Assembly: GCA_963816185.1 (NCBI GenBank)
Contig: CAWFJJ010000024.1
Location: forward strand, 384,001 to 448,000
From: Thermoanaerobaculia bacterium
GTDB lineage: Bacteria; Acidobacteriota; Thermoanaerobaculia; UBA5066
DNA: 64,000 nt
Direction: 5' to 3'
Shown here: in pieces, positions 8,797 through 64,000 of the stretch
Layout of the letters: every line of letters starts with the position of its first letter
Numbering within the stretch: position 1 is the stretch's first letter
Notes under the pieces: generated by a model
Database searches by the model: none
Told to the model about the DNA's origin: nothing
What the model saw: the letters and a program-made list of their open reading frames with translations, nothing else
Translations under genes and position numbers: made by a program

Positions 8797-8897
8797 AGGT
8801 TCTGCAAAATTTCTTAGAATGGTGAGCGAGGCTAAAGCGCCGCCCGCCGCAGAGGCGTCGGGTACGGCCGCGACGCCTCAATACCTTCTAAGAAGCC
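8797..8897. repeat. Intergenic inverted pair of TTCTWAGAA motifs with internal GC hairpin
   Basis: TTCTTAGAA 8811-8819 and TTCTAAGAA 8886-8894. Hairpin GAGGCGTCG 8852-8860 / CGACGCCTC 8871-8879. Confidence 0.7.
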
Positions 8898-8932
8898 CTT
8901 CTTCGGCCCGTCCCCCGGGCGAGAGCGCCGAG

Positions 8933-9559
8933 TCAGGCCGGCCGTCGAAGCAGATCCAAGAACTCTTCTCTGACCGCCTTCTGGAGGAAGATCCCGCGGA
9001 GCGCGGACGTGACCGTCACGGCGCCCGGCTTCTTGACGCCGCGCATCTCCACGCAGAGGTGCCGGGCCTCGATGACGACCATGACGCCCTGGGGCTTCAG
9101 CTCCTCCTCGAGGACGCCCGCGACCTGCTCGGTCAGCCGCTCCTGGACCTGCGGCCTCCGCGCGTAGAACTCCAAGAGCCGCGGCAGCTTCGAGAGGCCG
9201 ACGATCGTGTCGTTCGGGATGTACGCGATGTGCCCGTGCCCGTAGAACGGCACAAAGTGGTGGGCGCACATGGAGTAGAAGGGGATCTCCTTTTCCATGA
9301 CCATCGACGTGTAATGCTCCTCGTTCGGGAACGTCGTGAGCTTCGGGCGGGTGCCCTCGTCCAGGCCGGAGAAGATGTCGAGGTACATCTTCGCGACGCG
9401 CCGGTCCGTGTCGATGAGGTTCGGGTCGCGGTCGGGACAAAGGCCGAGGATCCGGATGATCTCTTTCACATGGCCGGCGATCTGGTCGACGCGAGGATCG
9501 GCGATGTCGCCGTTCTCGAGGAGGGCGGTGTGGAGTGCTTCTGGGTCGAGCTGGCTCAT
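8933..9559 (-). CDS. folE: GTP cyclohydrolase I
   Basis: FYSMCAHHFVPFYG, VGLSKLPRL, RRPQVQERLT, EARHLCVEMRGV. Confidence 0.96.
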   Translation of the reverse strand: MSQLDPEALHTALLENGDIADPRVDQIAGHVKEIIRILGLCPDRDPNLIDTDRRVAKMYLDIFSGLDEGTRPKLTTFPNEEHYTSMVMEKEIPFYSMCAHHFVPFYGHGHIAYIPNDTIVGLSKLPRLLEFYARRPQVQERLTEQVAGVLEEELKPQGVMVVIEARHLCVEMRGVKKPGAVTVTSALRGIFLQKAVREEFLDLLRRPA

Positions 9560-9592
9560 GCGGGCATCATACGAGGGGGAGGGGGCGGGCGG

Positions 9593-11047: not shown

Positions 11048-11053
11048 GCCCCC

Positions 11054-15752: not shown

Positions 15753-16964
15753 GCCTCTCTTCACCCCTCCGACCCACGCACGCCGTCGTCGACCTCGACG
15801 CGCTCGCGTCGAACTACCGGGCGATCATGCGCGCGCTGCCCAAGGGCTGCGTGCTGATGCCCGTCGTCAAGGCGGACGCGTACGGCCATGGAGCCGGGCA
15901 CGTCGCGCGCCGCCTCGCGGAGGAGGGCGCGCCGATCTTCGCGGTCGCCGTCGTCGAGGAGGGACTCGAGCTGCGGCGCGCGGGCATCACGCAGCCGATC
16001 CTCGTCATGGGCTGGATCGGAGGAGATCAGATTGGCTCCCTCGTAAAGGGTGGTCTCACGCCCAATGTCCATTCGATGGAACAGGGTGAGGAATTGAAGA
16101 ACTTCCTAGAAGGGGAAGAGGGGAGAGGGGCGTCGCGCTTGCCCTTGCCCGTTCATCTGAAGCTCGACACGGGGATGACGCGGCTCGGGGTGCTTCCGTC
16201 CGACTTGCCGCGAGTTCTCGACCTTCTCGACGAATCGAAGGGGCGCATTTTCTTAGAAGGTGTATTTCAGAACTTCGCCTCGGCGGACGATCCCGGCGGT
16301 GCACAAACCGAGGCGCAGATCAGGATTTTCTTAGAAGGTCTAAAGGCAATTCGCGCGCGCGGGTCACCGGCCTTCCATCATCCACACCGACAACAGCGCG
16401 GCGACGCTGGCGCGGCTGGCTAATTCACCTTCTAAGAAATCTCTCTTCGAGGTCACTCATGTCCGCCCCGGCCTGGCTCTTTACGCACGGGTCCCCGGGC
16501 TCTCTTCCGAAGCAAATGATTCTCTCTCGGACGTCATGTCGTTCGTCTCCGTCGTCGACCAGGTGAAGACCGTCCCGCCCGGGACGCGCGTGGGTTACGG
16601 CGGGACGTTCGTCGCGGGGCGGACCACGACGCTCGCCATCGTCCCGGCCGGATTCGCGGACGGCGTGCCGCGGCATCTCTCCGGGCGCGGGCACGTCCTG
16701 ATCGGGGGCCGCCGCTGCCCGATCGCCGGGCGCGTCTCGATGGACCTCACGGCCGTCGACGTGACGGACCTTCCCGCACGGCCCGCGCGGAACGAAGAGG
16801 TGGTCTTCTTCGGACGCCAGGGAGGCGCCCGGCTTGGCGTCGACGAGGTGGCTGCGGCCGCGGGAACGGTCTCCTGGGAGCTCCTGTGCGGCGTCGGCCC
16901 GCGCGTGCCACGTATCATCGTGTCCGGAGGCCGGATCGTGGCACGGGAGACGAAATTCCTGTGA
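15749..16964 (+). CDS. alr: Alanine racemase, split by a +1 frameshift near 16362 (probable sequencing error); start codon uncertain (CTG overlapping dnaB stop)
   Basis: VVKADAYGHG and HLKLDTGMTRLG in the first frame. H.DNSAA, VRPGLALY, VGYGG, GRVSMD in the second frame. Confidence 0.9.
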
Positions 16965-26149: not shown

Positions 26150-27691
26150 TTGCTCAAGATCTCGATCCAAAGTGGTAAGGCGCACGCCCCGAGGGCGGAC
26201 GCGCTCGTTGTCTTCGCGGCCGGCAAGTCAAGGAAGGAAAGTCTTTCTTCGCTGCCGGCGGACCTGCGTGCCCTCGTGGCTGCGGCCGCGCCCGCCGAGC
26301 CCTCGGCGGACGGCGCCGTCTTCACGCTTCCTCTCCGTGGAGGCAAGGGGGCCGCGCGCCTCTACGTCCTTGGCGCGGGCAAGGAGACCGAAATCTCGCC
26401 GCGCAAGGCACGCGGCCTGCTGCGGGCCGCCGCGAAGACGCTGAACCGGAGCGGCGAATCGTCGGCCATCCTCGATTTCGCGCTCGGCATCAAGCGGATG
26501 GATGCGAAGGAGGCGCGAGAGTTCATCTTGCGCTCGCTCTTCCTCGCCGATTACGGCTTTCCTCGCTACAAGTCGAAAGACGCCGAGAAGACGCCGCTCG
26601 CCGCGATCGCCGTCGAGCCCCTCGGCGCGTTCCAGGGCATCGAGGCCCGTGAAATCGACGAGGCGCGCGCCGTCGCGCGTGTGGCCCGCCTCGTCCGCGA
26701 TCTCGGCAATACGCCGTCGAACGACATGCTTCCGCGCAATTTCGCGGACCGCGTCCGGAAGGAAGCGAAGACACGCGGCGTGAAGGTGACGGTCCTCGAC
26801 AAGAAGGCGATCCGGAAGGAGCGGATGGGCGGCCTCCTCGCGGTGAACCGCGGCGCTGCCGAGGAGCCGCGCGTCGTCGTCCTCGAGTACCGGGGAGGCC
26901 GGAAAGGCGAGGCGCCCGTGGCGCTCGTGGGAAAGGGCGTCACCTTCGATTCCGGCGGGATCTCGATCAAGCCCGCAGACAAGATGGGCGACATGAAGTG
27001 GGACATGATGGGCGCGGCCACGGCGATGGGCGCGGTCCTGGCCGCCGCGGACCTTCGCCTCGGCGTCAACCTCGTCGGGATCGCGGCCCTCACCGAGAAT
27101 CTGCCCTCGGGCTCCTCGTACAAACCGGGCGACATCGTGAGATTCCGCAACGGCAAGACGGCCGAGATCGACAACACGGATGCCGAGGGACGCGTCATCC
27201 TCGCGGACGCGCTCGACTATGCGGCCGAATGGAAGCCCGCGGTCATCCTGGATTACGCGACGCTCACGGGTGCGGCTCTCGTGGCGCTCGGTCTCGAGGC
27301 GGCGATCGTGTTCACGGACGACGACGCCCTCGCGAGGGAGCTCGTGAAGGCCGGGGAGCGGACGGACGAGCGCCTCTGGCGCCTCCCGATGTGGGAGGAG
27401 TACCGCGAGAACATCCGGTCCGACTGGGCCGACATGAAGAACACGGGCGGCCGGTGGGGCGGCTCGATCAACGGCGCGATGTTCCTCAAGGAATTCGTGG
27501 ATCCGAAGAGGCCTTGGGCGCACCTCGACATCGCGGGAACGGCCTTTTACGACCGCGAGTACGCGGGTTATCCCGTCGGAGCGACGTCCTTCGGGCTGGG
27601 CCTCACGCTGCGCTGGCTGAAGGACGGCTGGAGGGGAAGAAGAAAAGGAAATGACTTGAGGGAGAAAGAGAGAGAAGAAAGATTTGCTTAG
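26150..27691 (+). CDS. pepA: Leucyl aminopeptidase (M17)
   Basis: VGKGVTFDSGGISIK, MKWDM, NTDAEGR, ATLTGA, WAHLDIAG. Confidence 0.95.
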   Translation: MLKISIQSGKAHAPRADALVVFAAGKSRKESLSSLPADLRALVAAAAPAEPSADGAVFTLPLRGGKGAARLYVLGAGKETEISPRKARGLLRAAAKTLNRSGESSAILDFALGIKRMDAKEAREFILRSLFLADYGFPRYKSKDAEKTPLAAIAVEPLGAFQGIEAREIDEARAVARVARLVRDLGNTPSNDMLPRNFADRVRKEAKTRGVKVTVLDKKAIRKERMGGLLAVNRGAAEEPRVVVLEYRGGRKGEAPVALVGKGVTFDSGGISIKPADKMGDMKWDMMGAATAMGAVLAAADLRLGVNLVGIAALTENLPSGSSYKPGDIVRFRNGKTAEIDNTDAEGRVILADALDYAAEWKPAVILDYATLTGAALVALGLEAAIVFTDDDALARELVKAGERTDERLWRLPMWEEYRENIRSDWADMKNTGGRWGGSINGAMFLKEFVDPKRPWAHLDIAGTAFYDREYAGYPVGATSFGLGLTLRWLKDGWRGRRKGNDLREKEREERFA

Positions 27692-27742
27692 AAGGGAAAA
27701 AGAAAAAGAAGAAAGACATGGCAGCCGCCGAATAGCAGAAAG

Positions 27743-29536
27743 ATGTTGACGAGTCTCCGCGTCCGCGACCTCGCAGTCCTCGAGGACGTCGAGGTGGCGT
27801 TCGGCGAAGGCCTCACCGTCCTGACGGGAGAGACGGGAGCCGGCAAGTCGCTCGTCGTGGACGCCGTGATGCTGCTTGCCGGAGGGCGGGCTGATCCCGC
27901 GCTCGTGAGGGCCGGGTCCGAGAGACTCGTCGTCGAGGGCGCGTTCGACTGCGACGACGCCGAGGCGCGGCGCGCTCTCGTCGAGGCGGGTCTCCTCGAG
28001 GATGGAGGCACGGGCTCTTTCGAGGTCGTCGTGCGGCGCGAGGTCGCCGCGGGCGGCAAGGGGCGGCTCCTCGTGAACGGCTCTCCGGCGGCCCTGAGGA
28101 CTCTGCAGGAGATCGCGCCGCGTCTTCTCGTGCTCTACGGGCAGGCGGAGGCGCGCGACCTCCTCGATCCCGACGCGCCTCGCCACCTTCTGGATCGGTT
28201 CGCGGGCCTCGGAGAAGGGGCGGCAGCCGCGGCCGATCGCTTTCGCGAGTTCGTCGGCGCCGAGCGCGATCTCGCGCGCCTCCACGAGGCGGCCCGGGAC
28301 CGCGTTCAAAGGCTCGAGCTGCTCGAATTCCAGATTGCCGAGATCGACGGGGTGGGGCCGAAAGAGGGAGAAGACGAGGAGATTTCTTCTGAAAGGAAGA
28401 GACTGGCCAGCGTCGAGAAAGTGGGCCAGCTTCTCGCAACGGCGACGAGCGCGCTGGAATCCGACGAGAGCGGCGCGATCCCTGCGGCTTCGGCTGCCCG
28501 CCGAGCTCTTCAGCAACTCGAAGAAATCTCCTCCTCGTACACCACCCGGAGCGCCGCCCTCGCCGAGGCGATCGAGCGGCTCAAAGAGGTTGCGTTCGAG
28601 ACCTCCCGCGACCTCGGGAGTCTCGAGGCGGATCCCGCGCGTGCCGCGTTCGTGGCCGAAAGGCTCGACGCCCTCGCGAAGCTGAAGAGAAAATACGGCG
28701 CGACGCTCGCCGAGGTCCTCGAACGGCGCGCGTCGCTCGGCCGGGAGCGCGACGAGCTTCTCGATCTCGAAGGCGCGGTGAAGAAGGCCGAAGGTGCGTC
28801 GGAAAAGGCCTTCTCCTCCTATCGCCGCGCCGCGCTCGAGCTGTCGGCCGGCCGCGAGGCGGCCGCGCCGCGCCTCGGGCGCGCCGTGGAAGAGCACCTT
28901 CGAGACCTCGCGTTCCTCAAATCGTCGTTCTCGGTTCTCGTGACGCGCCGCGAGGAGGAAGGGAGTCGTTTCGCGGCGGGAGGCAGCCGCGTCTCCTTCG
29001 GGACGCACGGCATCGACCAGGTGGCATTCGCCTTCGCACCGAACCCCGGAGAGCCGGCGCGGCCTCTCCAGAAGATCGCCTCGGGCGGGGAGCTCTCCCG
29101 CGTCCAGCTCGCGCTGGCGGCCGCGCTTGCGGCCGAGGAGTCGGAGTCCGAGGCAAAGCCTGCAACGAGGCGCCGCGGCGGCCCCGTCCGGACCTTCGTC
29201 TTCGACGAGGTGGACGCGGGCGTCTCGGGCGCGACGGCGGAAGCCGTCGGCCGGAAGCTGCGCGGCCTCGCGGCGAAAGAGCAGATCCTCGTCGTCACGC
29301 ATCTCGCACAAGTCGCAGCGGCCGGCGACTGCCACCTTTCGGTCTCGAAGGAGGCGGCCAAGGGCCGGACGCGGACGCGCGTGGAGGCGCTCGACGGGGC
29401 CGGGCGGGTCGAGGCGATCGCCGCCCTTCTCGCTGGGGCGTCCGTCGGGGAAGCGGCGCGGGCCCAGGCGCGGCAGCTCCTCTCCGCGTTCACCCCAGGC
29501 GGGCGCCGTCCACGACTTTCCAGCCGCTCTTCTTGA
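27743..29536 (+). CDS. recN: DNA repair protein RecN
   Basis: LTGETGAGKS, IASGGELSR, FDEVDAGVSG, VTHLAQVA. Confidence 0.96.
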   Translation: MLTSLRVRDLAVLEDVEVAFGEGLTVLTGETGAGKSLVVDAVMLLAGGRADPALVRAGSERLVVEGAFDCDDAEARRALVEAGLLEDGGTGSFEVVVRREVAAGGKGRLLVNGSPAALRTLQEIAPRLLVLYGQAEARDLLDPDAPRHLLDRFAGLGEGAAAAADRFREFVGAERDLARLHEAARDRVQRLELLEFQIAEIDGVGPKEGEDEEISSERKRLASVEKVGQLLATATSALESDESGAIPAASAARRALQQLEEISSSYTTRSAALAEAIERLKEVAFETSRDLGSLEADPARAAFVAERLDALAKLKRKYGATLAEVLERRASLGRERDELLDLEGAVKKAEGASEKAFSSYRRAALELSAGREAAAPRLGRAVEEHLRDLAFLKSSFSVLVTRREEEGSRFAAGGSRVSFGTHGIDQVAFAFAPNPGEPARPLQKIASGGELSRVQLALAAALAAEESESEAKPATRRRGGPVRTFVFDEVDAGVSGATAEAVGRKLRGLAAKEQILVVTHLAQVAAAGDCHLSVSKEAAKGRTRTRVEALDGAGRVEAIAALLAGASVGEAARAQARQLLSAFTPGGRRPRLSSRSS

Positions 29537-30359: not shown

Positions 30360-31622
30360 ATGATCGCGAGCGTCAAGGGGACGCGCGACCTCCTCCCGCC
30401 CGAGACGCGCGTGTGGAACCGCGTCGAGGCGGCTGCGCGCGAGGTCTTCGCGCTCTACGGCTTCGACGAGATCCGGACGCCGACGCTGGAGTCCACGGAG
30501 CTCTTCGTGCGGAGCGTGGGGGAGTCGACGGACATCGTCCACAAAGAGATGTACACGTTCACCGACCGCGGCGGCCGTTCCGTGACGCTGCGCCCCGAGA
30601 ACACGGCGGGAGTCGCGCGCGCCTACGTCGAGCACACGCTTGCGCAGGCAGGGCGGCCCTGGAAGCTGTACTACATCGGGCCGCAGTTCCGGTACGAGCG
30701 CCCTCAGAAGGGCCGCTATCGCGAGTTCCGGCAGATCGGAGCCGAGATTCTCGGCCCCTCGGACGCCGCGACGGACGCCGAGCTGCTCGTCATGCTCTTC
30801 GACTTCCTCGGGCGGCTCGGGTTCATGGGACTTTCTGTTTCGCTCAATTCGGTGGGGACGGAAGTCGAGAGACCAGGGTTCATCCAGGCGCTGCGCGCCT
30901 GGTTTTCTTCGAAGGAGAATTTGCTGGACGAGGACGACCGGCGACGCCTCGCGGAGAATCCCCTGCGCATCCTCGACTCGAAAAATCAGCGCCTTGCTGA
31001 ATGGCTCGCCGATCCCTCGCTGCCGCGCATGGTCGATTACCTTTCGAAGGAATCTTCCGAACATCACACGATGCTTCTCGGCTTTCTCGACGCAGCTCGC
31101 ATCCCCTATCGGATGGATCCTCTTCTGGTCCGTGGCCTCGACTACTACACGCGCACCGTTTTCGAGGTCACGGCAGCCGGCCTCGGAGCGCAGGACGCGA
31201 TCCTCGGCGGGGGCCGCTACGACAAGCTCGTCTCCGACCTCGGGGGACCGAGGACCGCCGGGATCGGCTTCGCCATCGGGACGGATCGTCTCGTCGGCAT
31301 CCTGCCCGAGGCGTTCCGCTCGGCGGCGATCGAGGCCGTTCGGCCTGTCGTGCTGATCCCGCTCGAGCGCGCCGACGTGGCGGAGGCTCTCTCCCTCGCG
31401 AAGGACCTTCGGAAGGAGGGGATTCCCGTCGACCTCGTCACGGCCGCGAAAGGACCGGGGCACGGCCTGAAGGTGGCCGAGAAAACGGGGGCCGTCCTCG
31501 CCGTTCTTCTCGGGCAGAAGGAGCGCGAAGGGGGAGTCGTGAACGTCAAGGATCTCGCGCGGCGGACGCAGGAGGCGCTCCCGCGGCTCGGCCTCGCGGC
31601 CGCTCTGCGCGCGCGTCTGTAA
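30360..31622 (+). CDS. hisS: Histidine--tRNA ligase
   Basis: KGTRDLLP, KEMYTF, LRPENTA, FRYERPQKGRYREF.Q, LVRGLDYY, GGGRYD. Confidence 0.97.
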   Translation: MIASVKGTRDLLPPETRVWNRVEAAAREVFALYGFDEIRTPTLESTELFVRSVGESTDIVHKEMYTFTDRGGRSVTLRPENTAGVARAYVEHTLAQAGRPWKLYYIGPQFRYERPQKGRYREFRQIGAEILGPSDAATDAELLVMLFDFLGRLGFMGLSVSLNSVGTEVERPGFIQALRAWFSSKENLLDEDDRRRLAENPLRILDSKNQRLAEWLADPSLPRMVDYLSKESSEHHTMLLGFLDAARIPYRMDPLLVRGLDYYTRTVFEVTAAGLGAQDAILGGGRYDKLVSDLGGPRTAGIGFAIGTDRLVGILPEAFRSAAIEAVRPVVLIPLERADVAEALSLAKDLRKEGIPVDLVTAAKGPGHGLKVAEKTGAVLAVLLGQKEREGGVVNVKDLARRTQEALPRLGLAAALRARL

Positions 31623-31633: not shown

Positions 31634-33400
31634 ATGTCCTCAGTCGCACGCACCCCCGCCGGAACGCTCCGCAAGGCCGACGTCGGGCGGACCGTTCGCC
31701 TCCAGGGGTGGGTAAACCGCCGCCGCGACCACGGCGAGCTCGTGTTCATCGACCTGCGCGACCGCTCCGGGATCGCCCAGGTCGTGTTCGACGCCCGGTT
31801 CGTGCCGGCGCCCGATCTGCTCGAAAAAGCCAAGGAGCTTCGAAACGAGTTCGTCCTCGACGTGACAGGTACCGTCGTCGAGCGTGAGGGACTCAGCGTC
31901 AACCGCGAGCTCCCGACGGGTGAGATCGAGGTCCGCGCGACGGCGCTCTCGATCCTGAATCGGGCCGACACGCCGCCCTTCCCGATCGAGGACGGCATCA
32001 AGGCGTCGGAGGACTTGCGCCTCACGTATCGCTATCTCGACCTCAGGCGTCCCGAGATGACGAAGAAGTTCATGACGCGGAGCGCCGTGACGATGGCGAT
32101 CCGCGAGGTGATGCACGCCGAGGGTTTTCTCGACGTGGAGACGCCCATCCTCACGAAGTCGACGCCCGAAGGCGCGCGCGACTTCCTCGTCCCGTCGCGG
32201 ATTCACGAGGGCGAGTTCTACGCCCTCCCGCAGTCGCCGCAGCTCTTCAAGCAGCTCCTGATGGTCTCGGGGATGGAGCGTTACTACCAGATCGCCCGCT
32301 GCTTCCGCGACGAGGACCTCCGGGCCGACCGCCAGCCCGAGTTCACGCAGGTGGACATCGAGATGTCGTTTCCGAGCGAGGAGGCCGTCTTCACCCTCGT
32401 CGAGAGGATCTTCACGAAGGTGTTCCCCGCGTGGGGGATTCCGTGCGAGGCGCCTTTTCGGCGGATGACGTACGACGAGGCGATGGAGCGCTTCGGCATC
32501 GACCGGCCGGACACGCGCTTCGCCCTCGAGCTCGGAACGATATTGCGGCGCTTCGAAGAGAACCTTTCTTCGAAGGTGGAGAGAGTGAAGGGCCTGTGCG
32601 TGCCGGGAGGCGCGTCGTTTTCGCGCAAGCGCCTCGACGATCTCGAAAAGGGCGCGCGGGCGGCGGGCGTCGAGTGGTTCTTCTGGGTGAAGACGGCCGC
32701 CGCGGGAAGCTGGAATTCCAATTCGAAGAAAATCTTCAGCGACGCTTCGGTCGAGAAGATGCGTGCCGAGTTCGGCGCGGGAGATGGCGATCTCGTTCTT
32801 CTCGCGGCAGGGAAGGCCAAGTCCGTCTTCGACTTCCTCGGCGCCCTCCGCGTCCAGATCGCGCGCGAGGAGAAGCTCGTCCCTGAGGGGCGCTACGACT
32901 TCCTCTGGGTGACCGGGTTCCCGCTTCTCGAGTGGCACGAGGAGGACGCCCGCTGGTATTCGATGCACCATCCGTTCACGTCGCCGCGAGATGAGGACCT
33001 GCCGTTTCTCGAATCGGACCCCGGCCGCGTGAAGGCGCGCGCTTACGACGTCGTCTTGAACGGCATGGAGCTCGGCGGCGGGTCCGTCCGAATCCACCGG
33101 CCCGACGTGCAATCCCGCGTCTTCGAGCGGCTCGGCATCGGCCCCGAAGAAGCGCGCGCGAAGTTCGGATTCCTCCTCGATGCGTTTCGATTCGGCGCGC
33201 CGCCGCACGGGGGGATCGCGCTCGGCCTCGACCGCATCCTCATGATCCTGACGGGCTCGTCCTCGATTCGCGACGTCATCGCGTTCCCGAAGACCGCCTC
33301 CGGGTCGGATCTCATGACGCAGTGCCCGAACCCCGTGTCGCCCGAGCAGCTCGCCGAGCTGCACATCGCGCTCGCGAAGCCGCCGAAGTCCGAGGGCTGA
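31634..33400 (+). CDS. aspS: Aspartate--tRNA ligase
   Basis: RRDHG..FIDLRD, STPEGARDFLVPSR, LPQSPQLFKQ, FRDEDLRADRQPEFTQ, GAPPHGGIALGLDR. Confidence 0.97.
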   Translation: MSSVARTPAGTLRKADVGRTVRLQGWVNRRRDHGELVFIDLRDRSGIAQVVFDARFVPAPDLLEKAKELRNEFVLDVTGTVVEREGLSVNRELPTGEIEVRATALSILNRADTPPFPIEDGIKASEDLRLTYRYLDLRRPEMTKKFMTRSAVTMAIREVMHAEGFLDVETPILTKSTPEGARDFLVPSRIHEGEFYALPQSPQLFKQLLMVSGMERYYQIARCFRDEDLRADRQPEFTQVDIEMSFPSEEAVFTLVERIFTKVFPAWGIPCEAPFRRMTYDEAMERFGIDRPDTRFALELGTILRRFEENLSSKVERVKGLCVPGGASFSRKRLDDLEKGARAAGVEWFFWVKTAAAGSWNSNSKKIFSDASVEKMRAEFGAGDGDLVLLAAGKAKSVFDFLGALRVQIAREEKLVPEGRYDFLWVTGFPLLEWHEEDARWYSMHHPFTSPRDEDLPFLESDPGRVKARAYDVVLNGMELGGGSVRIHRPDVQSRVFERLGIGPEEARAKFGFLLDAFRFGAPPHGGIALGLDRILMILTGSSSIRDVIAFPKTASGSDLMTQCPNPVSPEQLAELHIALAKPPKSEG

Positions 33401-33471
33401 AGAGAATATTTCTTGTCTAAGAAGAGAAAAGAGAAGAGAAGATTTTCTTAGAAGGGGGAGAGGGGAAGGGC

Positions 33472-34614
33472 ATGCGATTGCGGAAAGCCCGGCATCTCTC
33501 CTCCTTTTCGTTTGTCGCGGGGGGCGTCCGCACGGACGTCGTCGTTGGGCCAGGCGCGCTGCGCGGCCTCGACGCGCGCCTCGGCCGCATCGCGCCGGGT
33601 CGCTGGTTTCTCATCTCTTCTAAGAAGGTCTTTCTCCTGCATGGCCACTTGCTGTCATCTGGAGGCGTTGAGCGGGTCCTCGATCCGAAGCCCCTCCTCG
33701 TCCCCGACGGCGAGGCCGCCAAGACCTGGGACGTCCTCGGGCGCCTCCTCGAAGAGCTCGCCCGGCGCGGGCTTCGGCGGGACGGTGGCATCGTCGCGCT
33801 CGGGGGCGGAACGGTGGGGGACGTCGCGGGCTTCGCGGCGGCGCTCGCTCTGCGCGGGGTGCCCGTCGTCCAGGCTCCCACGACGCTGCTCGCGGCCACC
33901 GACAGCGCCCTCGGCGGCAAGACCGCCGTGGATCTTCCTTCCGGAAAGAACCTCGCGGGCGCATTCCATGCGGCCCGCCTCATCGTCGTCGACACGTCCA
34001 CGCTCGAGACTCTTCCGCTTCGCGCGTATCGCTCCGGCCTTGCGGAGGTCGTGAAGACCTCGATGCTCGACGCGGGATTCCATCGTGCGATGGCGCGTCT
34101 CCTGGCGCCTCTCTCCTCCCGCGAACCGGTCGCCGTCTCCGAGGCCGTGCGCCGGTCTCTGGCCGTCAAGGCGCGCTCCGTGGCGCGCGATCCGTTCGAA
34201 CGGACCGGAGAGAGGGCGGCCCTGAACCTCGGACATACCGTGGGTCACGCCCTCGAGACGGCGTCCGGGCATCGCCTCGAGCATGGGGAGGCTGTCGCCT
34301 GGGGGCTGCTCGCGGCCTTGCGCCTTTCGGTTACGCGAGCGGGGCTCTCGACGCGGATGGCCGAAGCCCTCGCCGGGCGAGTTCTCCGCCTCGTGCAGCC
34401 GCCCGGGCCCTCGGTCGCAGCGTTGCGCGGGGTCCGGGCGCTTCTTCGCTCCGACAAGAAAGCCGACCGGCTCGGCCTCAAGGCGGTCGTCCTCGCGAGG
34501 CCCGGTCGGGCCATGCTCGTGAGCGCCGACGCGTCCGAGCTCATGGAGGCGTTCGAGGCCGTTCTTGCGCGGTACAATAGCGTTGGATGGGTGTTGCCCG
34601 GGTTCCGCGCCTGA
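33472..34614 (+). CDS. aroB: 3-dehydroquinate synthase
   Basis: PDGEAAK, ALGGGTVGDVAGF, PTTLLA..DSALGGKT, LNLGHTVGHALE, HGEAV. Confidence 0.92.
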   Translation: MRLRKARHLSSFSFVAGGVRTDVVVGPGALRGLDARLGRIAPGRWFLISSKKVFLLHGHLLSSGGVERVLDPKPLLVPDGEAAKTWDVLGRLLEELARRGLRRDGGIVALGGGTVGDVAGFAAALALRGVPVVQAPTTLLAATDSALGGKTAVDLPSGKNLAGAFHAARLIVVDTSTLETLPLRAYRSGLAEVVKTSMLDAGFHRAMARLLAPLSSREPVAVSEAVRRSLAVKARSVARDPFERTGERAALNLGHTVGHALETASGHRLEHGEAVAWGLLAALRLSVTRAGLSTRMAEALAGRVLRLVQPPGPSVAALRGVRALLRSDKKADRLGLKAVVLARPGRAMLVSADASELMEAFEAVLARYNSVGWVLPGFRA

Positions 34615-37461: not shown

Positions 37462-37490
37462 GCCGCGCGTCCTGCTAGTCTCGGAGGTCG

Positions 37491-38423
37491 ATGGCGAACG
37501 GCGAGCGCGACCCGTCCTCTGTCCTCGCCCGCCTGAAGCGCGGGCTCTTCATGACCCACACGGAGCTCCTCGCGAAGGTGGGGGGCGCGATCCGGGCGAC
37601 GTTCGAACCGGATCCCGCGGCGCTCCACGCGCTGGAAGAGGGGCTCCTTGCGGCCGACGTGGGTCCTCAGACGGCGGAGGAGCTCGTCGCGGCCGTGAAG
37701 GCCGAAGCCGGACGGCGCGACGCCGCCGAGGAGGACGTCGTCAGGCGCGTTCTGAGGGCCGAGGTGGAGAAGAGGCTCTCCATCCGCGGGCCCGATCTCG
37801 TGCCGGGATCGCCCCACGTGGTTCTCCTCGTCGGCGTGAACGGCACGGGCAAGACGACGACGGCCGCCAAGCTCGCCGCGCGCGCCGTGGCCGCGAAGAA
37901 GTCGGTCGTCCTCGCCGCGGCGGACACGTTCCGCGCCGCGGCGGTGGAGCAACTCGAGGTGTGGGCCTCGCGGCTGAACGTACCCCTCGTGAAGCACAAG
38001 GCCGGGTCCGATCCGGCCGCCGTCGTCCACGACGCGTGCGCGGTCGCGCTCGCGCGAAAGGCCGACTTGCTTCTCGTGGACACCGCCGGACGCCTCCACA
38101 CGAAGCACAACCTCATGGAGGAGCTCTCCAAGATCCGCCGCATCGCCGCGCGCAGCATTCCGGGGGCGCCGCACGAGGTTCTCCTCGTCCTCGACGCCGT
38201 GACGGGAATGAACGGGATCGCCCAGGCCCGCGAGTTCACGAGGTCGGTCGGCGTGACCGGTCTCGTGCTCACGAAGATGGACGGAACGGCGAAGGGCGGC
38301 GTGATCCTGGCGATCGTGCGCGAGCTCGCGTTGCCGGTCCGATACGTGGGCGTGGGCGAGACGGCGGACGACCTTCTCGACTTCGATGCGGCGGCGTTCG
38401 CCGGGGCGCTCGTGGATGATTGA
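37491..38423 (+). CDS. ftsY: SRP receptor FtsY
   Basis: GVNGTGKTTT, ADTFRAAA, DTAGR, TKMDGTAKGG. Confidence 0.96.
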   Translation: MANGERDPSSVLARLKRGLFMTHTELLAKVGGAIRATFEPDPAALHALEEGLLAADVGPQTAEELVAAVKAEAGRRDAAEEDVVRRVLRAEVEKRLSIRGPDLVPGSPHVVLLVGVNGTGKTTTAAKLAARAVAAKKSVVLAAADTFRAAAVEQLEVWASRLNVPLVKHKAGSDPAAVVHDACAVALARKADLLLVDTAGRLHTKHNLMEELSKIRRIAARSIPGAPHEVLLVLDAVTGMNGIAQAREFTRSVGVTGLVLTKMDGTAKGGVILAIVRELALPVRYVGVGETADDLLDFDAAAFAGALVDD

Positions 38424-39543
38424 AACGTCGCCTCTCGACGTTCTCTGGCGGCGCGTCTTCGAGCTCGCCGAACGCGGGCGGTTTTCGACGTCTCCGAATC
38501 CGCGCGTCGGGGCCGTCCTCGTCGACGCGAGCGGGACGGTGGTCGGGGAGGGCGCTCACGAGCGCGCCGGCGGCCCGCACGCCGAGGCCGTCGCTCTCGC
38601 GGCCGCGGGAGCGCGCGCGAAGGGCGCGACGCTGCTCGTCAACCTCGAGCCCTGCTCTCATTTCGGCCGCACGCCTCCCTGCACGGAGGCGCTGCTCGCC
38701 GCGGGGGTGTCGCGCGTCGTTTGCTCGATCGAGGATCCCGACTCGCGGACCGCGGGACGCGGAATCCGCCGCCTCAGAGAGCGGGGCGTCGACGTGCTGG
38801 TCGGAGCGTTCGCGGACGAAGCCGAGGCGCTGAACGAGGCGTTCCTGAAGTCCATTCGCGCCCGCCGTCCGTTCGTCCACCTGAAGTGGGCGGCGTCGCT
38901 GGACGGACGGACCGCGACGCGGAGCGGCGACTCGAAGTGGATCACCGGCCCGGCGGCGCGCGAGGATTCCTTGCGCCTCCGCGAGGAGTGCGATGCGATC
39001 CTCGTCGGCGCGCTCACGATCCTCGCGGACGACCCTCTCCTCACCCGCCGCCTGGCTCTTTCCTCGGCCATCTCTCCGCATCGCCGGCTCGTACTCGACG
39101 GCTCTCTCCGCGTGCCGGCCACGGCCCGCGTCTTCTCCGCGGCGGGAGGCGAGATCTGGCTGGTCACGGCGGTGCCCGCCGGCGATCCGCGCCTCGCGCC
39201 ATTCCTCGAGCGCGGCGTTCAGGTCTTCTCGAGGCCCGGGCCCGCGGGAGGCGTGGACTTGGGCGCTCTCCTGAGCGCGCTCCACGCCCTCGAGGTGCGC
39301 TCAGTGCTCGTCGAGGGCGGGGGTGTGACGGCCGCGTCGTTCCTGAAGGCGGGTCTCGTCGACCGCGTGACCGCCTACGTCGCGCCGCTTCTCGTGGGTG
39401 GCGCCGGCGCGCGCTCCCCCCTCGCGGGCGAGGGCGCGTACCGACTCGGAGACGCCTGCCGCCTCGCCAGCCTCGAAGCTGTCCGGATCGGATCCGACTT
39501 GCGCCTGTCGGCGCGAATCCTGCCGGGCTCGGCCGTCGGGTAG
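38416..39543 (+). CDS. ribD: Riboflavin biosynthesis deaminase/reductase
   Basis: PNPRVGAV, HAE, LEPCSHFGRTPPC, SLDGR.A, LVEGG. Confidence 0.95.
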   Translation: MIETSPLDVLWRRVFELAERGRFSTSPNPRVGAVLVDASGTVVGEGAHERAGGPHAEAVALAAAGARAKGATLLVNLEPCSHFGRTPPCTEALLAAGVSRVVCSIEDPDSRTAGRGIRRLRERGVDVLVGAFADEAEALNEAFLKSIRARRPFVHLKWAASLDGRTATRSGDSKWITGPAAREDSLRLREECDAILVGALTILADDPLLTRRLALSSAISPHRRLVLDGSLRVPATARVFSAAGGEIWLVTAVPAGDPRLAPFLERGVQVFSRPGPAGGVDLGALLSALHALEVRSVLVEGGGVTAASFLKAGLVDRVTAYVAPLLVGGAGARSPLAGEGAYRLGDACRLASLEAVRIGSDLRLSARILPGSAVG

Positions 39544-39552
39544 GATCGCGAA

Positions 39553-40224
39553 ATGTTCACCGGCCTCATTTCCGCCGTGACCCGCGTCGTGTCCCTCAGG
39601 GCCGGCGCGGAAGGCGCGATCCTCGCGGTCGAGCGCCCGACGGCCTTCGAAGACGTGGCCGTCGGTGAGAGCATCGCCGTCTCCGGGGTCTGCCTGACGG
39701 TCGTATCTCCGGCTCCCGGCCGGGTGCTCTTCTTCGACCTCTCGCCCGAGACGCTCGCACGCTCGGCTTTCGGGGACCTGGGCCCGGGCGTGGGCGTGAA
39801 CCTCGAGCGCTCGCTGGCCGCGGGCGACCGCCTCGGCGGCCACATCGTCGCGGGGCACGTGGACGGCACCGCCGAAGTGCTCGCTGTCGAGAAGTCCGGC
39901 GACTCGTGGACCTTCCGGTTTTCGCTCCCGGCCCCCCTCGCGCGTTACACCGTCGAAAAAGGCTCGATCGCCGTGGACGGGGTCTCGCTCACCGTGGCGA
40001 CGCTCGGAGAGGACTCGTTCGACGTAGCCGTCGTTCCGCACACGTTCAGGTCCACGACTCTCGGAGCGAAGAAACCCGGCGACCGCGTGAACATCGAGGT
40101 GGACGTCCTCGGAAAGTACGTCGAGCGACTCCTGGCGGCGCGGCTCGGCGAGACGCGCGATGCCGCTGAAGCGCAAGGCGCGCGGGACGAGCGCCTGCGC
40201 GGCCTCCTGACCGAAGGCTCGTGA
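39553..40224 (+). CDS. ribE: Riboflavin synthase alpha chain
   Basis: MFTGLI, GVCLTV, VNLER, GGHIVAGHVD, KGSIAVDGVSLT. Confidence 0.95.
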   Translation: MFTGLISAVTRVVSLRAGAEGAILAVERPTAFEDVAVGESIAVSGVCLTVVSPAPGRVLFFDLSPETLARSAFGDLGPGVGVNLERSLAAGDRLGGHIVAGHVDGTAEVLAVEKSGDSWTFRFSLPAPLARYTVEKGSIAVDGVSLTVATLGEDSFDVAVVPHTFRSTTLGAKKPGDRVNIEVDVLGKYVERLLAARLGETRDAAEAQGARDERLRGLLTEGS

Positions 40225-41466
40225 CGGCAGACGGCCTCCCGCGGGGCGCAACCGGTGCGCCCGGCGCGTACGTCCACGTGCCTTTCTGCGCGCATCGCTG
40301 CGCGTACTGCTCGTTCGTCGCGCTCGAGGGGAGAAGAGAAGAAGAAGATTTCTTCGAAGGCCTGGAGAGGGAAATTCGCGCGAGGGCGGGCGAGGCCGTG
40401 CGTGGCGCCGCCCGCGCGATTCGCGGTTTTGATTCCGTTTACTTCGGCGGCGGCACCCCTTCGTACGTCGACGCGCGTCGGCTCGGCCGCCTGCTCGGGA
40501 CCTTCGAAGAAATCTTCGGATCTCTCTTCGGACGTCGAAATCACGGCCGAGGCCAACCCGGACGACCTCGACGCGGACAAGCTTTCCGCTCTTTCGTCGA
40601 TCGGCGTGAACCGCCTTTCCATCGGTGTGCAGTCGCTCGTGGACGCGGAGCTTCTTCCGCTCGAGCGGCGGCACGATGCCGCCGCCGCGCGCCGCGCCGT
40701 GTCGGAGGCCGCACGCGCTTTCGGGAACGTCTCGGCCGACCTGATGATCGGCATTCCGGGGCAGACGAAGGAGACTCTGCTTGCGAGCGTCGACGGGCTC
40801 CTCGAAGCTGGCGTGACGCACCTTTCCGCCTATCTTCTCGAGATCGAGAAGGCGCCGAAGCTCGTGGCGCTGAAGAAGGAGCGGCCGGAGCTCTTCGCCG
40901 GCGACGACGAAATGGCGGACGGGTGGGAAGCCGTGGACGAGCGCGTGACGGCGGCCGGCCTGCAACGCTACGAGATGTCGAACTGGGCGAAGCCGGGCTT
41001 CGAGAGCCGGCACAACCTCAAGTACTGGACGCTCGTCCCCGTCCTGGGCTTCGGCGTCGCGGCACATTCGTTCGACGGCATGAAGCGGTACGCGAACACG
41101 GGGATGCTGGCCGAATACCTCCGGCGCACGCGAGAAGGCGTCTCGCCCGTCGCGACCTCCGAAGAGCACCAGGAAGATCTTCTTAGAAGGGAAGAGGGGC
41201 CTGCGTTCGGCCGGAGCCTTATGAGCAAGGTCCCCGCTGGCCACGATCTTCCCAGAAGGAAAGAGGAACTCATGCTGGGGCTTCGGCTCGCATGCGGCGT
41301 CCCCTCTTCCTCATTCGAAGAAATTTGCAGAACCTTGCCCAGAGCATCGGCCTCACGGATGGAGGACGCGCTCTTCGCCGGACTCCTCGAAAAACACTCT
41401 GGCTGCGTCCGCTTCACGCGCCGCGGCGTGATGTTGTCGAACGAGGTGTTTTCGCTCCTCGTCTAG
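40221..41466 (+). CDS. hemW: Radical SAM heme chaperone HemW (HemN-like), split by a +1 frameshift near 40518 (probable sequencing error)
   Basis: YVHVPFCAHRCAYCSF and YFGGGTPS in the first frame. EITAEANP, RLSIGVQS, YEMSNWA, HNLKYW in the second frame. Confidence 0.88.
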
Positions 41467-48771: not shown

Positions 48772-49469
48772 GGCCAAGCCAGGCCGTGAACGCACCGGTC
48801 AAGCGCTTCGTTCTGTTCGCGCGCGAGCCCGTACGAGGACGCGTGAAGACACGCCTCGCCCGCGAGATCGGGGCCGATGCCGCCGCGTCGCTCTACGAAG
48901 CGTTCCTTTCCGACCTGGCCGCCTCGCTGACGGCGCCTGAACGGTGGGAAGCGGTGCTCGCGCACGCGGAGCCGGAGGCGGGGCCGTTCCTCAGAAAGAC
49001 GTTTCCCGATCCGTGGTCACTCGTCCCGCAGGGCGACGGGTGTCTCGGAGAGCGTCTGTTTCACGCCTTCGGGAGAGGCCGAGATGGGGACGACGTCCTC
49101 GTCGCGGGAAGCGACGCCCCGACGCTTTCCCGCGCGAACCTCGAGGCCGCATTCCGGGCTCTACGGGAGGGCGCGGACGTCGTCTTCGCCCCCGCGCCGG
49201 ACGGTGGGTTCTCGCTCGTGGGTCGACGCGGCGACTCGGGTGCCGGGGATTTCTTCGAAGGTGTTCGATGGTCCACCGCCTACGCGCTCGAGGATTGCCG
49301 GAGCGCCGCGGAGGTACGCGGGTTCCGGGTCCGGCTCGTCGAAGAAATCTCCGACGTCGACACGAGCGCGGACCTCGAGGCTCTGGAGGCGGCCCTCGCG
49401 GCCGACCCGGATCTCGCCCCCGCGACGCGCCGGGCGCTCCTCGCGCTGTTCGGGCGGAGCGTCGGGTGA
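48768..49469 (+). CDS. TIGR04282/DUF2064 family glycosyltransferase-like protein
   Basis: FAREP..GRVKTRLA, Q..G.LGERL, GSDAP, PAPDGG, DVDT..DL. Confidence 0.88.
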   Translation: MRPSQAVNAPVKRFVLFAREPVRGRVKTRLAREIGADAAASLYEAFLSDLAASLTAPERWEAVLAHAEPEAGPFLRKTFPDPWSLVPQGDGCLGERLFHAFGRGRDGDDVLVAGSDAPTLSRANLEAAFRALREGADVVFAPAPDGGFSLVGRRGDSGAGDFFEGVRWSTAYALEDCRSAAEVRGFRVRLVEEISDVDTSADLEALEAALAADPDLAPATRRALLALFGRSVG

Positions 49470-55392: not shown

Positions 55393-55479
55393 GCCGGAGT
55401 GGCGGAATGGCAGACGCAGGGGACTCAAAATCCCCCGGTCCACAAGGCCGTGAGGGTTCGACTCCCTCCTCCGGCACCA
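55393..55479 (+). tRNA. tRNA-Leu(CAA)
   Basis: Acceptor GCCGGAG/CTCCGGC-A-CCA. D-arm TGGCGGAATGGCAGACGC. Anticodon stem GGGGA/TCCCC with loop CTCAAAA. Long variable arm and GGTTCGACTCC T-arm. Confidence 0.96.
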
Positions 55480-60677: not shown

Positions 60678-60705
60678 CCTATTTCCGTTCCCGAAGGAGG
60701 CGTCC

Positions 60706-61242: not shown

Positions 61243-61283
61243 CCCGCACGCAGATCTCCGACGGTTCTGGGAGGAGCGCCGAG

Positions 61284-61376
61284 AGATTTCTTAGAAGGGG
61301 AGAGAACACCGGCCGCCGCCGCGGCGCGCCGCGCGAGGCATGCAAAGGCCGTCCACGCGCCTTCTCAGAAGATCTT
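61284..61376. repeat. Intergenic inverted pair of the TTCTNAGAA motif
   Basis: AGATTTCTTAGAAGG (61284-61298) and CCTTCTCAGAAGATCT (61360-61375). Confidence 0.65.
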
Positions 61377-61436
61377 CTTCCTAGGCGAGATTGACCGCCG
61401 CGATGGGGCGGCGGCAACTTCCGTATAGTGGCGAGG

Positions 61437-62219
61437 ATGAATTCGCGCCCGATGCTCGCCGGACCCGCGGTCGGGCTTCTCCTGACGCTCGTGCTCCCGG
61501 CCGGCGCCGCGACGGTCCCGACTCGGACGGGTGACGTCGTGCTCGACGTCCTCCTGGTCTCGGTCGACATGGAGAAGCGACGCGTGACGGAGGATCTCGA
61601 GGAGTTCGACCGGATCTCTGGGCAGGCGTCGCGTGCGGAGGCCGACCTCACCGCGGCCCTGAATCAAATCGCCCATCTCGCGCGCGAGGGGACGTTGGAT
61701 CGCAGCGCTCTGGAGCTGGCCGAGCAGGCCGCGGCCGACGCGCGCGCGCGCGTGGAAGCTGGCCAGGACAGACGCCGAGCCTTGTCCGAGCGGCTCGCCG
61801 AGCACGTGCGTCGTCTCGCCGCGTTCCGGGAGGAGATCGCGCGCCGTCGCGAGACCTTGAGAAGCGTTCTTTCCGACCCCCTGACGGGGCGTTGGGAGGT
61901 CTTCATCAACCCGGGAGCGCAGCACGGCTTTTACCGCCTTTCTCTCGACGGCACGATCCTCTCGGGGGACTATGTTCTCGACGGCGGGTTTCATGGGTCT
62001 CTGAGGGGCACGTTCGTGGGCGACCGCGTCACGTTCGAGAGGATCGATTCCGAACGCGGACTCGATGCCAAGTTCTATGGCCGCTTGACGATCGGCGCCG
62101 CGCGCCGCATCGCAGGCACCTGGGACGGGACGCAGATCGCGCCGCCCCCGGCCTCGGGTCCGGTGGCGGGCACGTGGTCGGCCAAACCGGTGCGTGATGA
62201 GGAGAGTGAATCGAGATGA
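61437..62219 (+). CDS. Hypothetical secreted protein (coiled coil plus beta domain)
   Basis: Signal peptide, heptad-rich segment, Gly-rich beta C-terminus, host-like codon usage. Confidence 0.65.
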   Translation: MNSRPMLAGPAVGLLLTLVLPAGAATVPTRTGDVVLDVLLVSVDMEKRRVTEDLEEFDRISGQASRAEADLTAALNQIAHLAREGTLDRSALELAEQAAADARARVEAGQDRRRALSERLAEHVRRLAAFREEIARRRETLRSVLSDPLTGRWEVFINPGAQHGFYRLSLDGTILSGDYVLDGGFHGSLRGTFVGDRVTFERIDSERGLDAKFYGRLTIGAARRIAGTWDGTQIAPPPASGPVAGTWSAKPVRDEESESR

Positions 62220-62953
62220 CGGCTGAAGAGATGGATGATCACCTGCCTCCGCCCGTGCCTGCCGGAAAGCCCGTCCGAGAGAAGAAAGCCCGAACCCCGG
62301 AGGCGCCCCGCCGCACATCCCCCTGGGCGGATCGGGGCCTGTTCCTCGCGTTGGGCCTTCTCGCGGGCTTTTCGGCCGCGTATCTGTACCTGGACAAGAA
62401 CCCGTCGGCGGTGCCGCAGGCTTCCCCGGCCGATCCGCATGCCGGCCTTGCCGGCGTCGGCCCGGGAGCGACACGGGATCTACCCGGCAGCGGCGGCGGG
62501 CAGCCCTCTCTGGCTTCCGACCCGGTCGCCCGGCAGAAGCTGAGCGACCTCGAGGCGGCGGTCGCGAAGGAGCCGAAGAACGCGGACCTTCTCGTGCAGC
62601 TCGGGAACGCGGCGTACGACGTCGAGGACTGGCAGAAGGCGGTCGACTCTTACGAGAGGGCTCTCAAGCTGCGCAGCGCCGATCCCAACGTCCTGACCGA
62701 TCTCGGAGTCGCGTACCGGAATGTCGGCAACGTCGACAAGGCGCTCGCGATGTTCACGCAGGCGTCGGCGCTCGATCCGAACCACTGGCCGGCGCAGTTC
62801 AATCTCGCGATCGTCTACGGCATCGACAAAGGCGACCCGAAGAGAGCTCTCGAGATCCTCGCGAAGCTCAAGAAGGAGCATCCCGAGATCCCCTCGCTCG
62901 ACCGCCTCACGAACGACCTCGAGCAGCGAGCGAAAGGACGCCCAGGGGCGTGA
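62216..62953 (+). CDS. Membrane-anchored TPR protein
   Basis: TM helix. LGNAAYD, VLTDLGVAYR, AQFNLAIV. Confidence 0.82.
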   Translation: MTAEEMDDHLPPPVPAGKPVREKKARTPEAPRRTSPWADRGLFLALGLLAGFSAAYLYLDKNPSAVPQASPADPHAGLAGVGPGATRDLPGSGGGQPSLASDPVARQKLSDLEAAVAKEPKNADLLVQLGNAAYDVEDWQKAVDSYERALKLRSADPNVLTDLGVAYRNVGNVDKALAMFTQASALDPNHWPAQFNLAIVYGIDKGDPKRALEILAKLKKEHPEIPSLDRLTNDLEQRAKGRPGA

Positions 62954-64000
62954 CGCCGTCGCCGGGCGACCTCTTCGAGGACGAGAGCCCGGCTGAAGAG
63001 TCGTCCGCCCACGTGAACGTCGTCCCGCCGGACGCTCCGCTCGCGGAGCGGATGCGCCCACGCGACCTCTCCGAGGTGGAAGGGCCGCCGGACCTCGTCG
63101 GCCCCGGCTCGTTTCTCGCGAAGGCGCTCGCGGCCGACACCGTTCCGTCGATCGTCTTCTGGGGTCCCCCCGGAAGCGGCAAGACGACGCTCGCGAGGAT
63201 CATCGCGGCGAAGACCCAGGCCCGCTTCATCGGCTTCTCGGCTGTCGTCTCGGGCATCAAGGAGATCCGGAGCGTGATGGAGGAAGCGGCCCGCGCCAAG
63301 CGCCGGGGCCGCCGAACGCTGCTGTTCGTGGACGAGATCCACCGTTTCAACCGGGCGCAGCAGGACGCATTCCTGCCGTTCGTCGAGGCCGGGGACATCG
63401 TTCTCGTGGGCGCCACGACCGAGAATCCCTCGTTCGAGCTGAACGGCGCGCTCCTGTCGCGCCTGAGGGTCGTCATTCTGCCTTCTCTGAAAGAAGAGGA
63501 TTTGATTCACCTGATGAAGAGAGCGCTGCAGGATCCCACGAGAGGACTCTCGGCGGCGGTGACGGTGAGTGAAGATGCCTTCGAATGGTTAGGACGCTTT
63601 GCCGACGGCGATGCCCGACGAGCATTGACCGCGCTCGAAGCGGCTTCCTCCCATCTCCTTTCAGAAGAAAACTCTTCGGATTCTTCGAAGGGTTCGATCG
63701 GCGAGGTTACGGCCGCAGCTGATTTGCGGGAGCCCGTGCTCACGGTCCCCGTCCTCGAGGACCTCTTCAGGCGGAAAGTCCTCCTCTACGACAAGTCGGG
63801 CGAGGAGCATTTCAACCTCATCTCGGCGCTCCACAAGTCGCTCCGCGACTCGGACGTGGACGCGTCGCTCTACTGGCTCGCGCGGATGCTCGAAGCGGGG
63901 GAGGACCCGCTTTACATCGCCCGGCGCCTCGTGCGCTTCGCCTCCGAGGACGTCGGTCTCGCCGACTCGTCCTCGCTGACTCTCGCCCTGGCGGCAAAAG
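62950..64000 (+). CDS. rarA: Replication-associated recombination protein A (partial, runs off window end)
   Basis: Manual translation: APLAERMRP, WGPPGSGKTT, FVDEIHRFNRAQQD, GATTENPSF, ISALHKSLRDSD, ASEDVG. Confidence 0.95.
   Translation, partial: MTPSPGDLFEDESPAEESSAHVNVVPPDAPLAERMRPRDLSEVEGPPDLVGPGSFLAKALAADTVPSIVFWGPPGSGKTTLARIIAAKTQARFIGFSAVVSGIKEIRSVMEEAARAKRRGRRTLLFVDEIHRFNRAQQDAFLPFVEAGDIVLVGATTENPSFELNGALLSRLRVVILPSLKEEDLIHLMKRALQDPTRGLSAAVTVSEDAFEWLGRFADGDARRALTALEAASSHLLSEENSSDSSKGSIGEVTAAADLREPVLTVPVLEDLFRRKVLLYDKSGEEHFNLISALHKSLRDSDVDASLYWLARMLEAGEDPLYIARRLVRFASEDVGLADSSSLTLALAAK

Follow-up and report, generated by a model that had tools for sequence, protein, structure and literature searches.

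The 64,000-nt stretch of DNA analysed here, called the window below, comes from an uncultured Thermoanaerobaculia bacterium (GCA_963816185.1, contig CAWFJJ010000024.1, positions 384,001 to 448,000; G000:C24:384001-448000 in our numbering). It raises the question why a short AT-rich word, TTCTWAGAA, should recur in a genome of 67% GC (G000; 5.09 Mb in 30 contigs), within essential genes as well as between genes. As set out below, the word is the core of an oriented arm, arms are arranged in convergent inverted pairs with a preferred spacing of about 75 bp, and arms inside genes are retained at synonymous sites. A preliminary description, made by reading the window alone, had reported nine exact copies of the word, and all nine are present (8811, 8886, 16250, 16328, 16430, 33445, 33618, 41180 and 61288). 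Its estimate that far less than one copy should occur by chance agrees with 100 dinucleotide shuffles of the window, in which the mean was 0.05 and the maximum 1. When the longer pattern ATTTCTTAGAAGG was searched with at most three mismatches, 27 matches were found in the window compared with 4.05 expected.

The excess holds for the whole genome, where TTCTWAGAA occurs 337 times against 5.6 expected from an order-3 Markov model and is the most enriched of all 9-mers, one poly-T artefact aside. (Poly-T/A runs of 1028 and 65 bases are located at G000:C10:1146-2240 on a 15.6-kb contig of 62% GC and are likely an assembly artefact or foreign DNA.) Shuffling of synonymous codons within open reading frames (ORFs) in 30 rounds gave 2.6±1.8 copies with a maximum of 8, whereas 159 are observed, so that the k-mer count suggested in the preliminary description yields a strong excess over both the Markov and the codon-preserving null. 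Between 158 and 159 of the 337 cores lie inside ORF spans, corresponding to a density of 0.42 cores per 10 kb within these spans and 1.36 outside; the underlying ORF calls are crude (stop-to-stop with a filter on GC content at third codon positions, covering 74% of the genome, and with at least one strand mis-called near 8950). The average density is about one core per 15 kb. Arms number in the hundreds and are spread across all large contigs, while the low-GC contigs carry few copies of the core or none. Inside genes the word enforces rare codons, as had been noted at first reading: TTC TTA GAA occurs twice in alr (read IFLEG), CTT CTT AGA in hemW (read DLLRR) and TCT TCT AAG in aroB, in a genome that uses the TTA codon 0.29 times per 1000 codons. 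Pfam agrees with all three gene names.

The arm around the AT-rich core is an oriented sequence of about 25 nt, RGAWT-TTCTTAGAAGG-KGAAKGGGG, embedded in purine-rich tracts of variable length, in line with the purine-rich surroundings described earlier; information content is confined to about positions -5 to +19. The motif had been called quasi-palindromic, but the flanks and the central base are asymmetric and the motif is no true palindrome. Among the 337 cores T-TTCTTAGAA-G is found 77 times and its reverse complement 86 times, whereas the same T...G flanks with the alternate central base account for just 10 and 12 copies. With a position weight matrix (PWM) and a threshold of ≥16 we found 660 sites compared with about 95 in the reversed sequence, or one PWM site per 7.7 kb; these counts are approximate because the matrix was derived from the sites themselves and is circular in this respect. 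Identical stretches between unrelated loci reach 36 nt, and only the arms are common to different loci.

What the preliminary description saw as a dispersed word turned out to have an anatomy that it had missed, with the arms forming convergent inverted pairs. Neighbouring sites at most 400 bp apart (n=243) are convergent (+/-) in 177 cases and divergent (-/+) in 13, and an inverted partner (PWM≥16, at 40-300 bp) lies on the inward side of 255 out of 402 strong arms but on the outward side of only 9. In clusters of arms every (+) arm precedes every (-) arm. The same order is seen in 449 kb from other species, with 34 +/- pairs and one -/+ pair, many of them orthologous copies. Pair spacing peaks sharply at 74-76 bp, where 19 of 88 strong pairs fall, and a further cluster lies at 149-156 bp; few pairs are closer than 65 bp, and neighbours in the same orientation likewise cluster at 72-90 bp. 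With the main peak included, a spacing period of 19.75 bp is reached by none of 2000 nulls; once the main peak is left out, the period is 21.25 bp (P=0.0185). The arms and arm-like sites in the window are as follows:

8806-8830, plus strand: intergenic (+) arm lying between two minus-strand genes and opening a 75-bp convergent pair
8875-8899, minus strand: (-) arm, partner of the 8811 arm
16098-16122, plus strand: (+) arm in alr that has decayed here; 4 of 6 relatives have the canonical form
16245-16269, plus strand: (+) arm in alr, read I-F-L-E-G
16323-16347, plus strand: (+) arm in alr, with an arm of opposite orientation at the same position in G008 and G003
16419-16443, minus strand: (-) arm in alr, read S-P-S-K-K-S, in 7 of 7 species compared
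27680-27704, plus strand: (+) arm in a purine-rich insertion of about 75 bp private to G000
28376-28402, plus strand: degenerate (+) arm in a recN-like gene
28508-28534, minus strand: degenerate (-) arm in the recN-like gene, about 137 bp from 28381
30900-30924, plus strand: (+) arm, C variant (TTCTTCGAAGG)
31032-31056, minus strand: weak (-) arm, 3 mismatches
32561-32585, plus strand: (+) arm, C variant, in aspS
32711-32735, minus strand: weak (-) arm in aspS, PWM 15.4
33440-33464, plus strand: (+) arm 21 nt ahead of the aroB start codon (ATG); 5 of 7 species have it, G017 and G003 do not
33607-33631, minus strand: (-) arm inside aroB, TCT TCT AAG AAG, 173 bp from 33445
40345-40369, plus strand: (+) arm in hemW, read E-D-F-F-E-G, kept in 20 of 20 genus orthologues
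40492-40516, minus strand: (-) arm in hemW, read F-E-E-I, conserved, 153 bp from 40350
41175-41199, plus strand: (+) arm in hemW, heading an in-frame 69-bp insertion private to G000
41244-41268, plus strand: (+) arm of ancestral origin in hemW, whose G000 copy has decayed (GATCTTCCCAGAAGG) while most relatives keep the canonical form
41303-41327, minus strand: (-) arm in hemW, read S-F-E-E-I, 65 bp from 41249
49246-49270, plus strand: (+) arm, C variant
49327-49351, minus strand: weak (-) arm, 87 bp from 49251
61283-61307, plus strand: intergenic (+) arm, exact 13-mer, opening a 74-bp pair that G017 lacks
61351-61375, minus strand: (-) arm, partner of the 61288 arm
63472-63496, minus strand: weak match, possibly chance, 3 mismatches
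63676-63700, plus strand: weak match, possibly chance, 3 mismatches

Of 18 close variants named at first reading, 13 were recovered with ATTTCTTAGAAGG at up to three mismatches (16103, 27685, 30905, 31043, 32566, 40344/40350, 40501, 41314, 49251, 49338, 61362, 63483 and 63681), the entries at 63483 and 63681 standing in the atypical -/+ order. The other five are visible on reading, namely 32722 with its PWM score of 15.4, 33415 as an interrupted copy, 41249, and the degenerate 28381 and 28518. Several further observations concern these loci. The TAG within the arm at 27685-27691 is the stop of an M17 aminopeptidase ORF, whose C-terminal tail is encoded by the G000-only purine-rich insert. At 40517-40521 hemW is frame-shifted in G000, with one base more than in 19 of 19 relatives and one related soil contig, and the frame of alr changes at about 16350-16375 in a run of GCGCGCGCGGG, where six relatives are one base shorter; both frameshifts are probably assembly indels. 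Soil contigs showed joints from 33445 to 40343 and from 33445 to 41304, which reflect cross-linking by the repeated arm. An Rfam scan of the window matched nothing but a tRNA gene at 55393-55476, and no family corresponds to the arms.

In contrast to the arms, the DNA between partner arms is not shared between loci. For most centres (153 of 169) the genome contains no other copy, and the remainder lie in paralogous genes, which rules out that centres were copied from elsewhere in the genome, and alignment scores of all centres against each other are about those of shuffles. Since different copies have unrelated centres, what is copied is not the pair. Centres fold like their shuffles (mean z = -0.01, n=91), as do two whole elements (z = 0.40 and -1.41), and terminator hairpins were ruled out since the centres are unstructured. 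The two arms of a pair behave independently: their similarity to each other does not exceed that between arms taken from different pairs (z from -2.4 to 0.5), and whether one arm has the central A or C is independent of its partner. Centres inside genes are often native conserved coding sequence, such as the kinase motif RFEREAKLLASLNHPNI, the HemN_C segment of hemW and alr. Pairs flanked by genes on the same strand are read through open and in frame, as low-complexity inserts, in 34 of 68 cases. Small ORFs within the centres were dismissed by eye, the listed pair distances showing no 3-bp preference. Serine/threonine kinase paralogues at G000:C24:605666, 616381 and 620204, C23:5304 and C28:51683 share an arm pair, spaced 93 bp, at a common position in the kinase domain (FFEGEE ... 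SFEEI).

We then compared genomes. Every one of 18 further genomes from this soil genus, all metagenome-assembled (MAGs) and from uncultured Thermoanaerobaculia (Acidobacteriota), has 51-267 copies of TTCTTAGAAGG, while a reversed control gave 1-10. Five genomes from four sister genera of the same family and 12 genomes from two other families of the order contain 0-1 copies, a result that is unchanged when the outgroup genomes G019 and G024 are left out. Among the genomes searched the word is restricted to one genus. An assembly or polishing artefact, which the preliminary description had named as a possible undoing of the motif, is excluded by the enrichment in 18 of 18 other assemblies of the genus and by orthologous placement in 20 hemW loci. 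A dialect version of the motif was sought in 400 kb of the sister genus genome G039 (C1:1700001-2100000), which gave only a different, unrelated and weaker word, TGCTGCTTGCGTACG, with 8-14 copies per 400 kb or 15-20 times the expectation. In the literature, searched in main texts and among the matches listed, we found no description of the word in bacteria and no work that links Thermoanaerobaculia with repetitive or palindromic DNA.

Between G000 and six relatives synteny is kept, with BLAST alignments interrupted precisely where the intergenic elements lie. Among the genomes that allow a comparison only G000 has the 8811 pair, the 27685 arm, the 61288 pair and the 69-bp hemW insert; related soil contigs lack the 27685 element or have a replacement there, and the 33445 arm is common to five of seven species. 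While intergenic copies were gained and lost between species, the coding arms are old. Four hemW arms are found at identical positions in 20 of 20 orthologues and four alr arms are common to most of seven species, and the comparison of orthologues that had been suggested at first reading shows arms of hemW, alr, aroB and RNase R at orthologous positions in relatives. The preliminary description had concluded that constraint acts on the DNA and not on the protein, which is supported by two observations. In hemW of 20 species third codon positions are more conserved inside the four arms (0.84) than outside (0.72; Mann-Whitney p=7.6e-5), and they are modally A or T at 18 of 32 positions in arms compared with 21 of 333 elsewhere. 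In RNase R, where outgroups read L-L-E, a sister genus reads F-L-E-G as TTC CTG GAG GGG and the present genus spells the same residues TTC TTA GAA GG, a recoding found only in this genus; between the RNase R arms, species differ in the length of the segment, from 0 to about 25 residues. At the third alr site the arm is reversed in two species (G008, G003). Gains by insertion or deletion (indels) include a tandem arm in alr of G003 and private in-frame insertions with a new arm in hemW, of 54 bp in G006 and 69 bp in G000, while many other arms overlie native codons without any insertion. The orthologous coding arms, the recoding and the inserts together indicate that arms arise by substitution at near-matches and by indels adjacent to purine tracts, and the presence and absence of elements between species leaves room for a mobile component.

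How could such a pattern be maintained? We tentatively favour the reading that the arms are paired recognition sites of a putative genus-specific DNA-binding protein that brings two arms together, because the sites are paired at a fixed spacing, the arms are independent, the centres are unique and unstructured, synonymous sites are conserved and the word is confined to one genus. Convergent pairing at fixed spacing favours a two-site protein complex. The putative protein may be derived from a transposase or recombinase or may be nucleoid-associated; it would bind each arm separately and join two inverted arms, the DNA between them forming a short loop or wrap of some 75 bp, or a longer one in steps of about 20 bp. 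Arms would persist through maintenance of sites at the DNA level, either by selection or by protein-dependent drive, and new arms could originate by point substitution at near-matches, for instance at F-x-E codons, or by slippage and insertion within purine-rich flanks. Sites such as parS, the Noc-binding NBS, matS and SlmA sites are AT-rich with dyad symmetry and are bound by chromosome-organising proteins, but they are single palindromes of 14-16 bp in tens of copies with regional clustering, whereas here hundreds of oriented paired arms are spread over all large contigs. Pairing and spacing argue against this class as well as against a simple uptake word. Of the functions offered in the preliminary description none is established: sites of an organising protein in their single-palindrome form and simple uptake words have lost ground, and the footprint of a mobile element is still alive.

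Several points weigh against our reading. We infer the protein, the synapsis of two arms and a benefit to the cell, and no candidate for this central actor was found. The intergenic arms of the window are mostly missing from the nearest relatives and differ by indels, a pattern suggestive of a mobile or unstable element more than of a conserved operator, and arms identical over up to 36 nt at unrelated loci suggest recent copying or gene conversion. The arms have no tie to promoters, nor to gene starts over gene ends in the flank-based, noisy coding classes that we compared, and this weakens a regulatory role. As the species compared are kin, the conservation tests overstate significance. The periodicity of about 20 bp is modestly supported without its main peak, the PWM counts come from a self-built matrix, and the ORF calls are crude.

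The most serious rival is a non-autonomous selfish repeat of the REPIN, MITE or RPE kind, that is an inverted-repeat element of about 110 bp or a single arm, moved by a transposase in trans and inserted between genes as well as in frame within them; we consider this rather unlikely. REPINs are hundreds of conserved repeats forming inverted doublets, and GI REPINs have invariant 16-mers 71 bp apart around a less conserved spacer (PMC3116915). The arms here resemble them in being hundreds of lineage-specific, vertically persistent inverted doublets with a fixed spacing (75 bp). Copies present in one species and absent from another or from related soil contigs, the private in-frame hemW insertions of G000 and G006 with their new arms, and the long identities between arms of different loci also fit a repeat that spreads. 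However, the centres are unrelated, so the pair does not look like a copied unit, and they are unstructured, with no hairpin signal and no compensatory change in partner arms. REPINs are extragenic, whereas nearly half of the cores lie in ORF spans and translated arms are found in hemW, alr, aroB, aspS and RNase R. The Y1/RAYT transposase (PF01797) has no match in G000 and is found in only 3 of 26 genus genomes searched, being missing in the other 23. In comparison with MITEs the arms are likewise similar to terminal inverted repeats, but the interiors are unrelated between family members; a search for a parent insertion sequence gave 14 strong convergent pairs at 240-4000 bp, and the five examined hold no transposase and enclose PrmA, a symporter, FG-GAP and unknown ORFs. 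RPEs are repeat DNA found in frame within unrelated housekeeping genes, to which they add short peptides (PMC10969869), and the open pairs (34 of 68) and the variable RNase R insert are comparable to them. RPEs are, on the other hand, about 150 bp (100-150) long and conserved over their full length, whereas shared stretches here do not exceed 36 nt and only the arms of about 25 nt are common; in addition many arms replace native codons with no length added. Synonymous-site conservation is not expected of neutral selfish DNA.

Improbable in our view is an uptake or recombination-promoting signal of the USS, DUS or HIP1 kind, which would accumulate by molecular drive, through mutation, preferential uptake or repair, and homologous recombination. 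The USS of Pasteurellaceae and the DUS of Neisseriaceae are lineage-specific, with a frequency of about one per kb, and build up in coding DNA through substitutions; they also occur as inverted pairs, which are adjacent terminator-like hairpins. The word studied here shares with them its lineage specificity, its over-representation and its entry into coding DNA by substitution at tolerant positions; it is scarce on low-GC contigs, and G000 encodes ComEC, DprA and a ComEA-like protein. The density of 337 cores or 660 PWM sites in 5.09 Mb is far lower, the strict convergent pairing at 75 bp is left unexplained, intergenic copies differ by indels, and competence genes are nearly universal, ComEC and DprA being present in 10-11 of 14 control genomes. 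HIP1 (GCGATCGC) of cyanobacteria is 15- to 300-fold over-represented and conserved within and between ORFs, its function being debated (PMC5861425), which the conservation of our arms at orthologous sites, beyond codon constraint, recalls. HIP1 is nevertheless a perfect 8-bp palindrome tied to methyltransferases that follows no rule of pairing and occurs about once per gene, whereas the word here has an orientation, spans about 25 nt when its flanks are counted, is paired at 75 bp and is some 10-fold less frequent. Very doubtful are invertons, in which the arms would be the inverted repeats of many small invertible segments, some of them intragenic, served by one master recombinase. Inverted arms flanking unique DNA, recognised independently and with a single consensus at all loci, would suit such a system, and the spacing floor near 65 bp fits a looping limit. 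Logan contigs of four soil runs showed no strand-changing joints, a weak argument since contigs hide rare variants, and the pairs enclose conserved, essential coding sequence in hemW, alr and protein kinases, where inversion would destroy the gene. No invertase came to light, though no search was aimed at one. We attach equally slight weight to an RNA-level element, in which the purine-rich and pyrimidine-rich arms pair to a long stem that serves RNase III or masks a Shine-Dalgarno-like sequence. The arms do pair in minimum-energy folds, and one of them lies 21 nt ahead of the start of aroB. There is also a likeness to the 16S 3' end: its complement is similar to the (+) arm, and the tail itself, GGATCACCTCCTTTCTAAGG, is similar to the (-) arm. 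But whole elements fold like shuffles, partner arms do not covary, a stem would not require a single fixed sequence, no Rfam family matches and arms are not enriched at gene starts over ends. The 16S 3' end and the start of its spacer (G000:C1:445510-445560) read GGATCACCTCCTTTCTAAGGGATCTC, which resembles the (-) arm CACCTTCTAAGAAATC and in complement the (+) arm; this could be coincidence or Shine-Dalgarno likeness. An origin from rRNA flanks was rejected, as the flanks of the rRNA operon are without an arm.

The arms thus fail at least one defining feature of each of the REPIN, MITE, RPE, USS/DUS and HIP1 families. Their architecture is nearest to REPINs, their presence in genes nearest to RPEs and their over-representation conserved in ORFs nearest to HIP1. 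No viral contigs match the pair pattern. A reverse transcriptase as the writer of arms has no support; the only one in G000 (G000:C30:283778-284398, L177:616-2328, minus strand) belongs to retron type XI and forms a fusion with a trypsin-like protease (PADLOC RT-Protease_XI, E 3.6e-162). A more far-reaching version, which we hold to be speculative and improbable, is a new kind of genome-wide cis/trans system in which one lineage-specific protein, or a writer that works from a template, would place hundreds of two-arm sites around arbitrary native DNA, essential genes included, and keep them there, with a fixed ruler of about 75 bp. Such a system would make protein-held micro-loops, wraps or switchable segments, and its arms would spread by recoding near-matching codons; it is unlike a transposon in that the centre is not copied and unlike a simple binding word in its strict convergent pairing.

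The feature belongs with dispersed short genomic repeats and iterated words, among which its two-arm geometry is unusual and well defined. Words of the HIP1, USS/DUS and REP/REPIN type are among the least understood features of bacterial genomes, and the present case adds an oriented word, paired at a fixed distance and retained at synonymous sites of essential genes, in one genus only. On the practical side the arms break assemblies, cross-link contigs and add low-complexity inserts to many proteins of these MAGs. The geometry of 75 bp, possibly with steps of about 20 bp, is a constraint for any mechanism, and the difference between this genus and its sister genera with 0-1 copies provides a clean phylogenetic contrast for finding the trans-acting factor.

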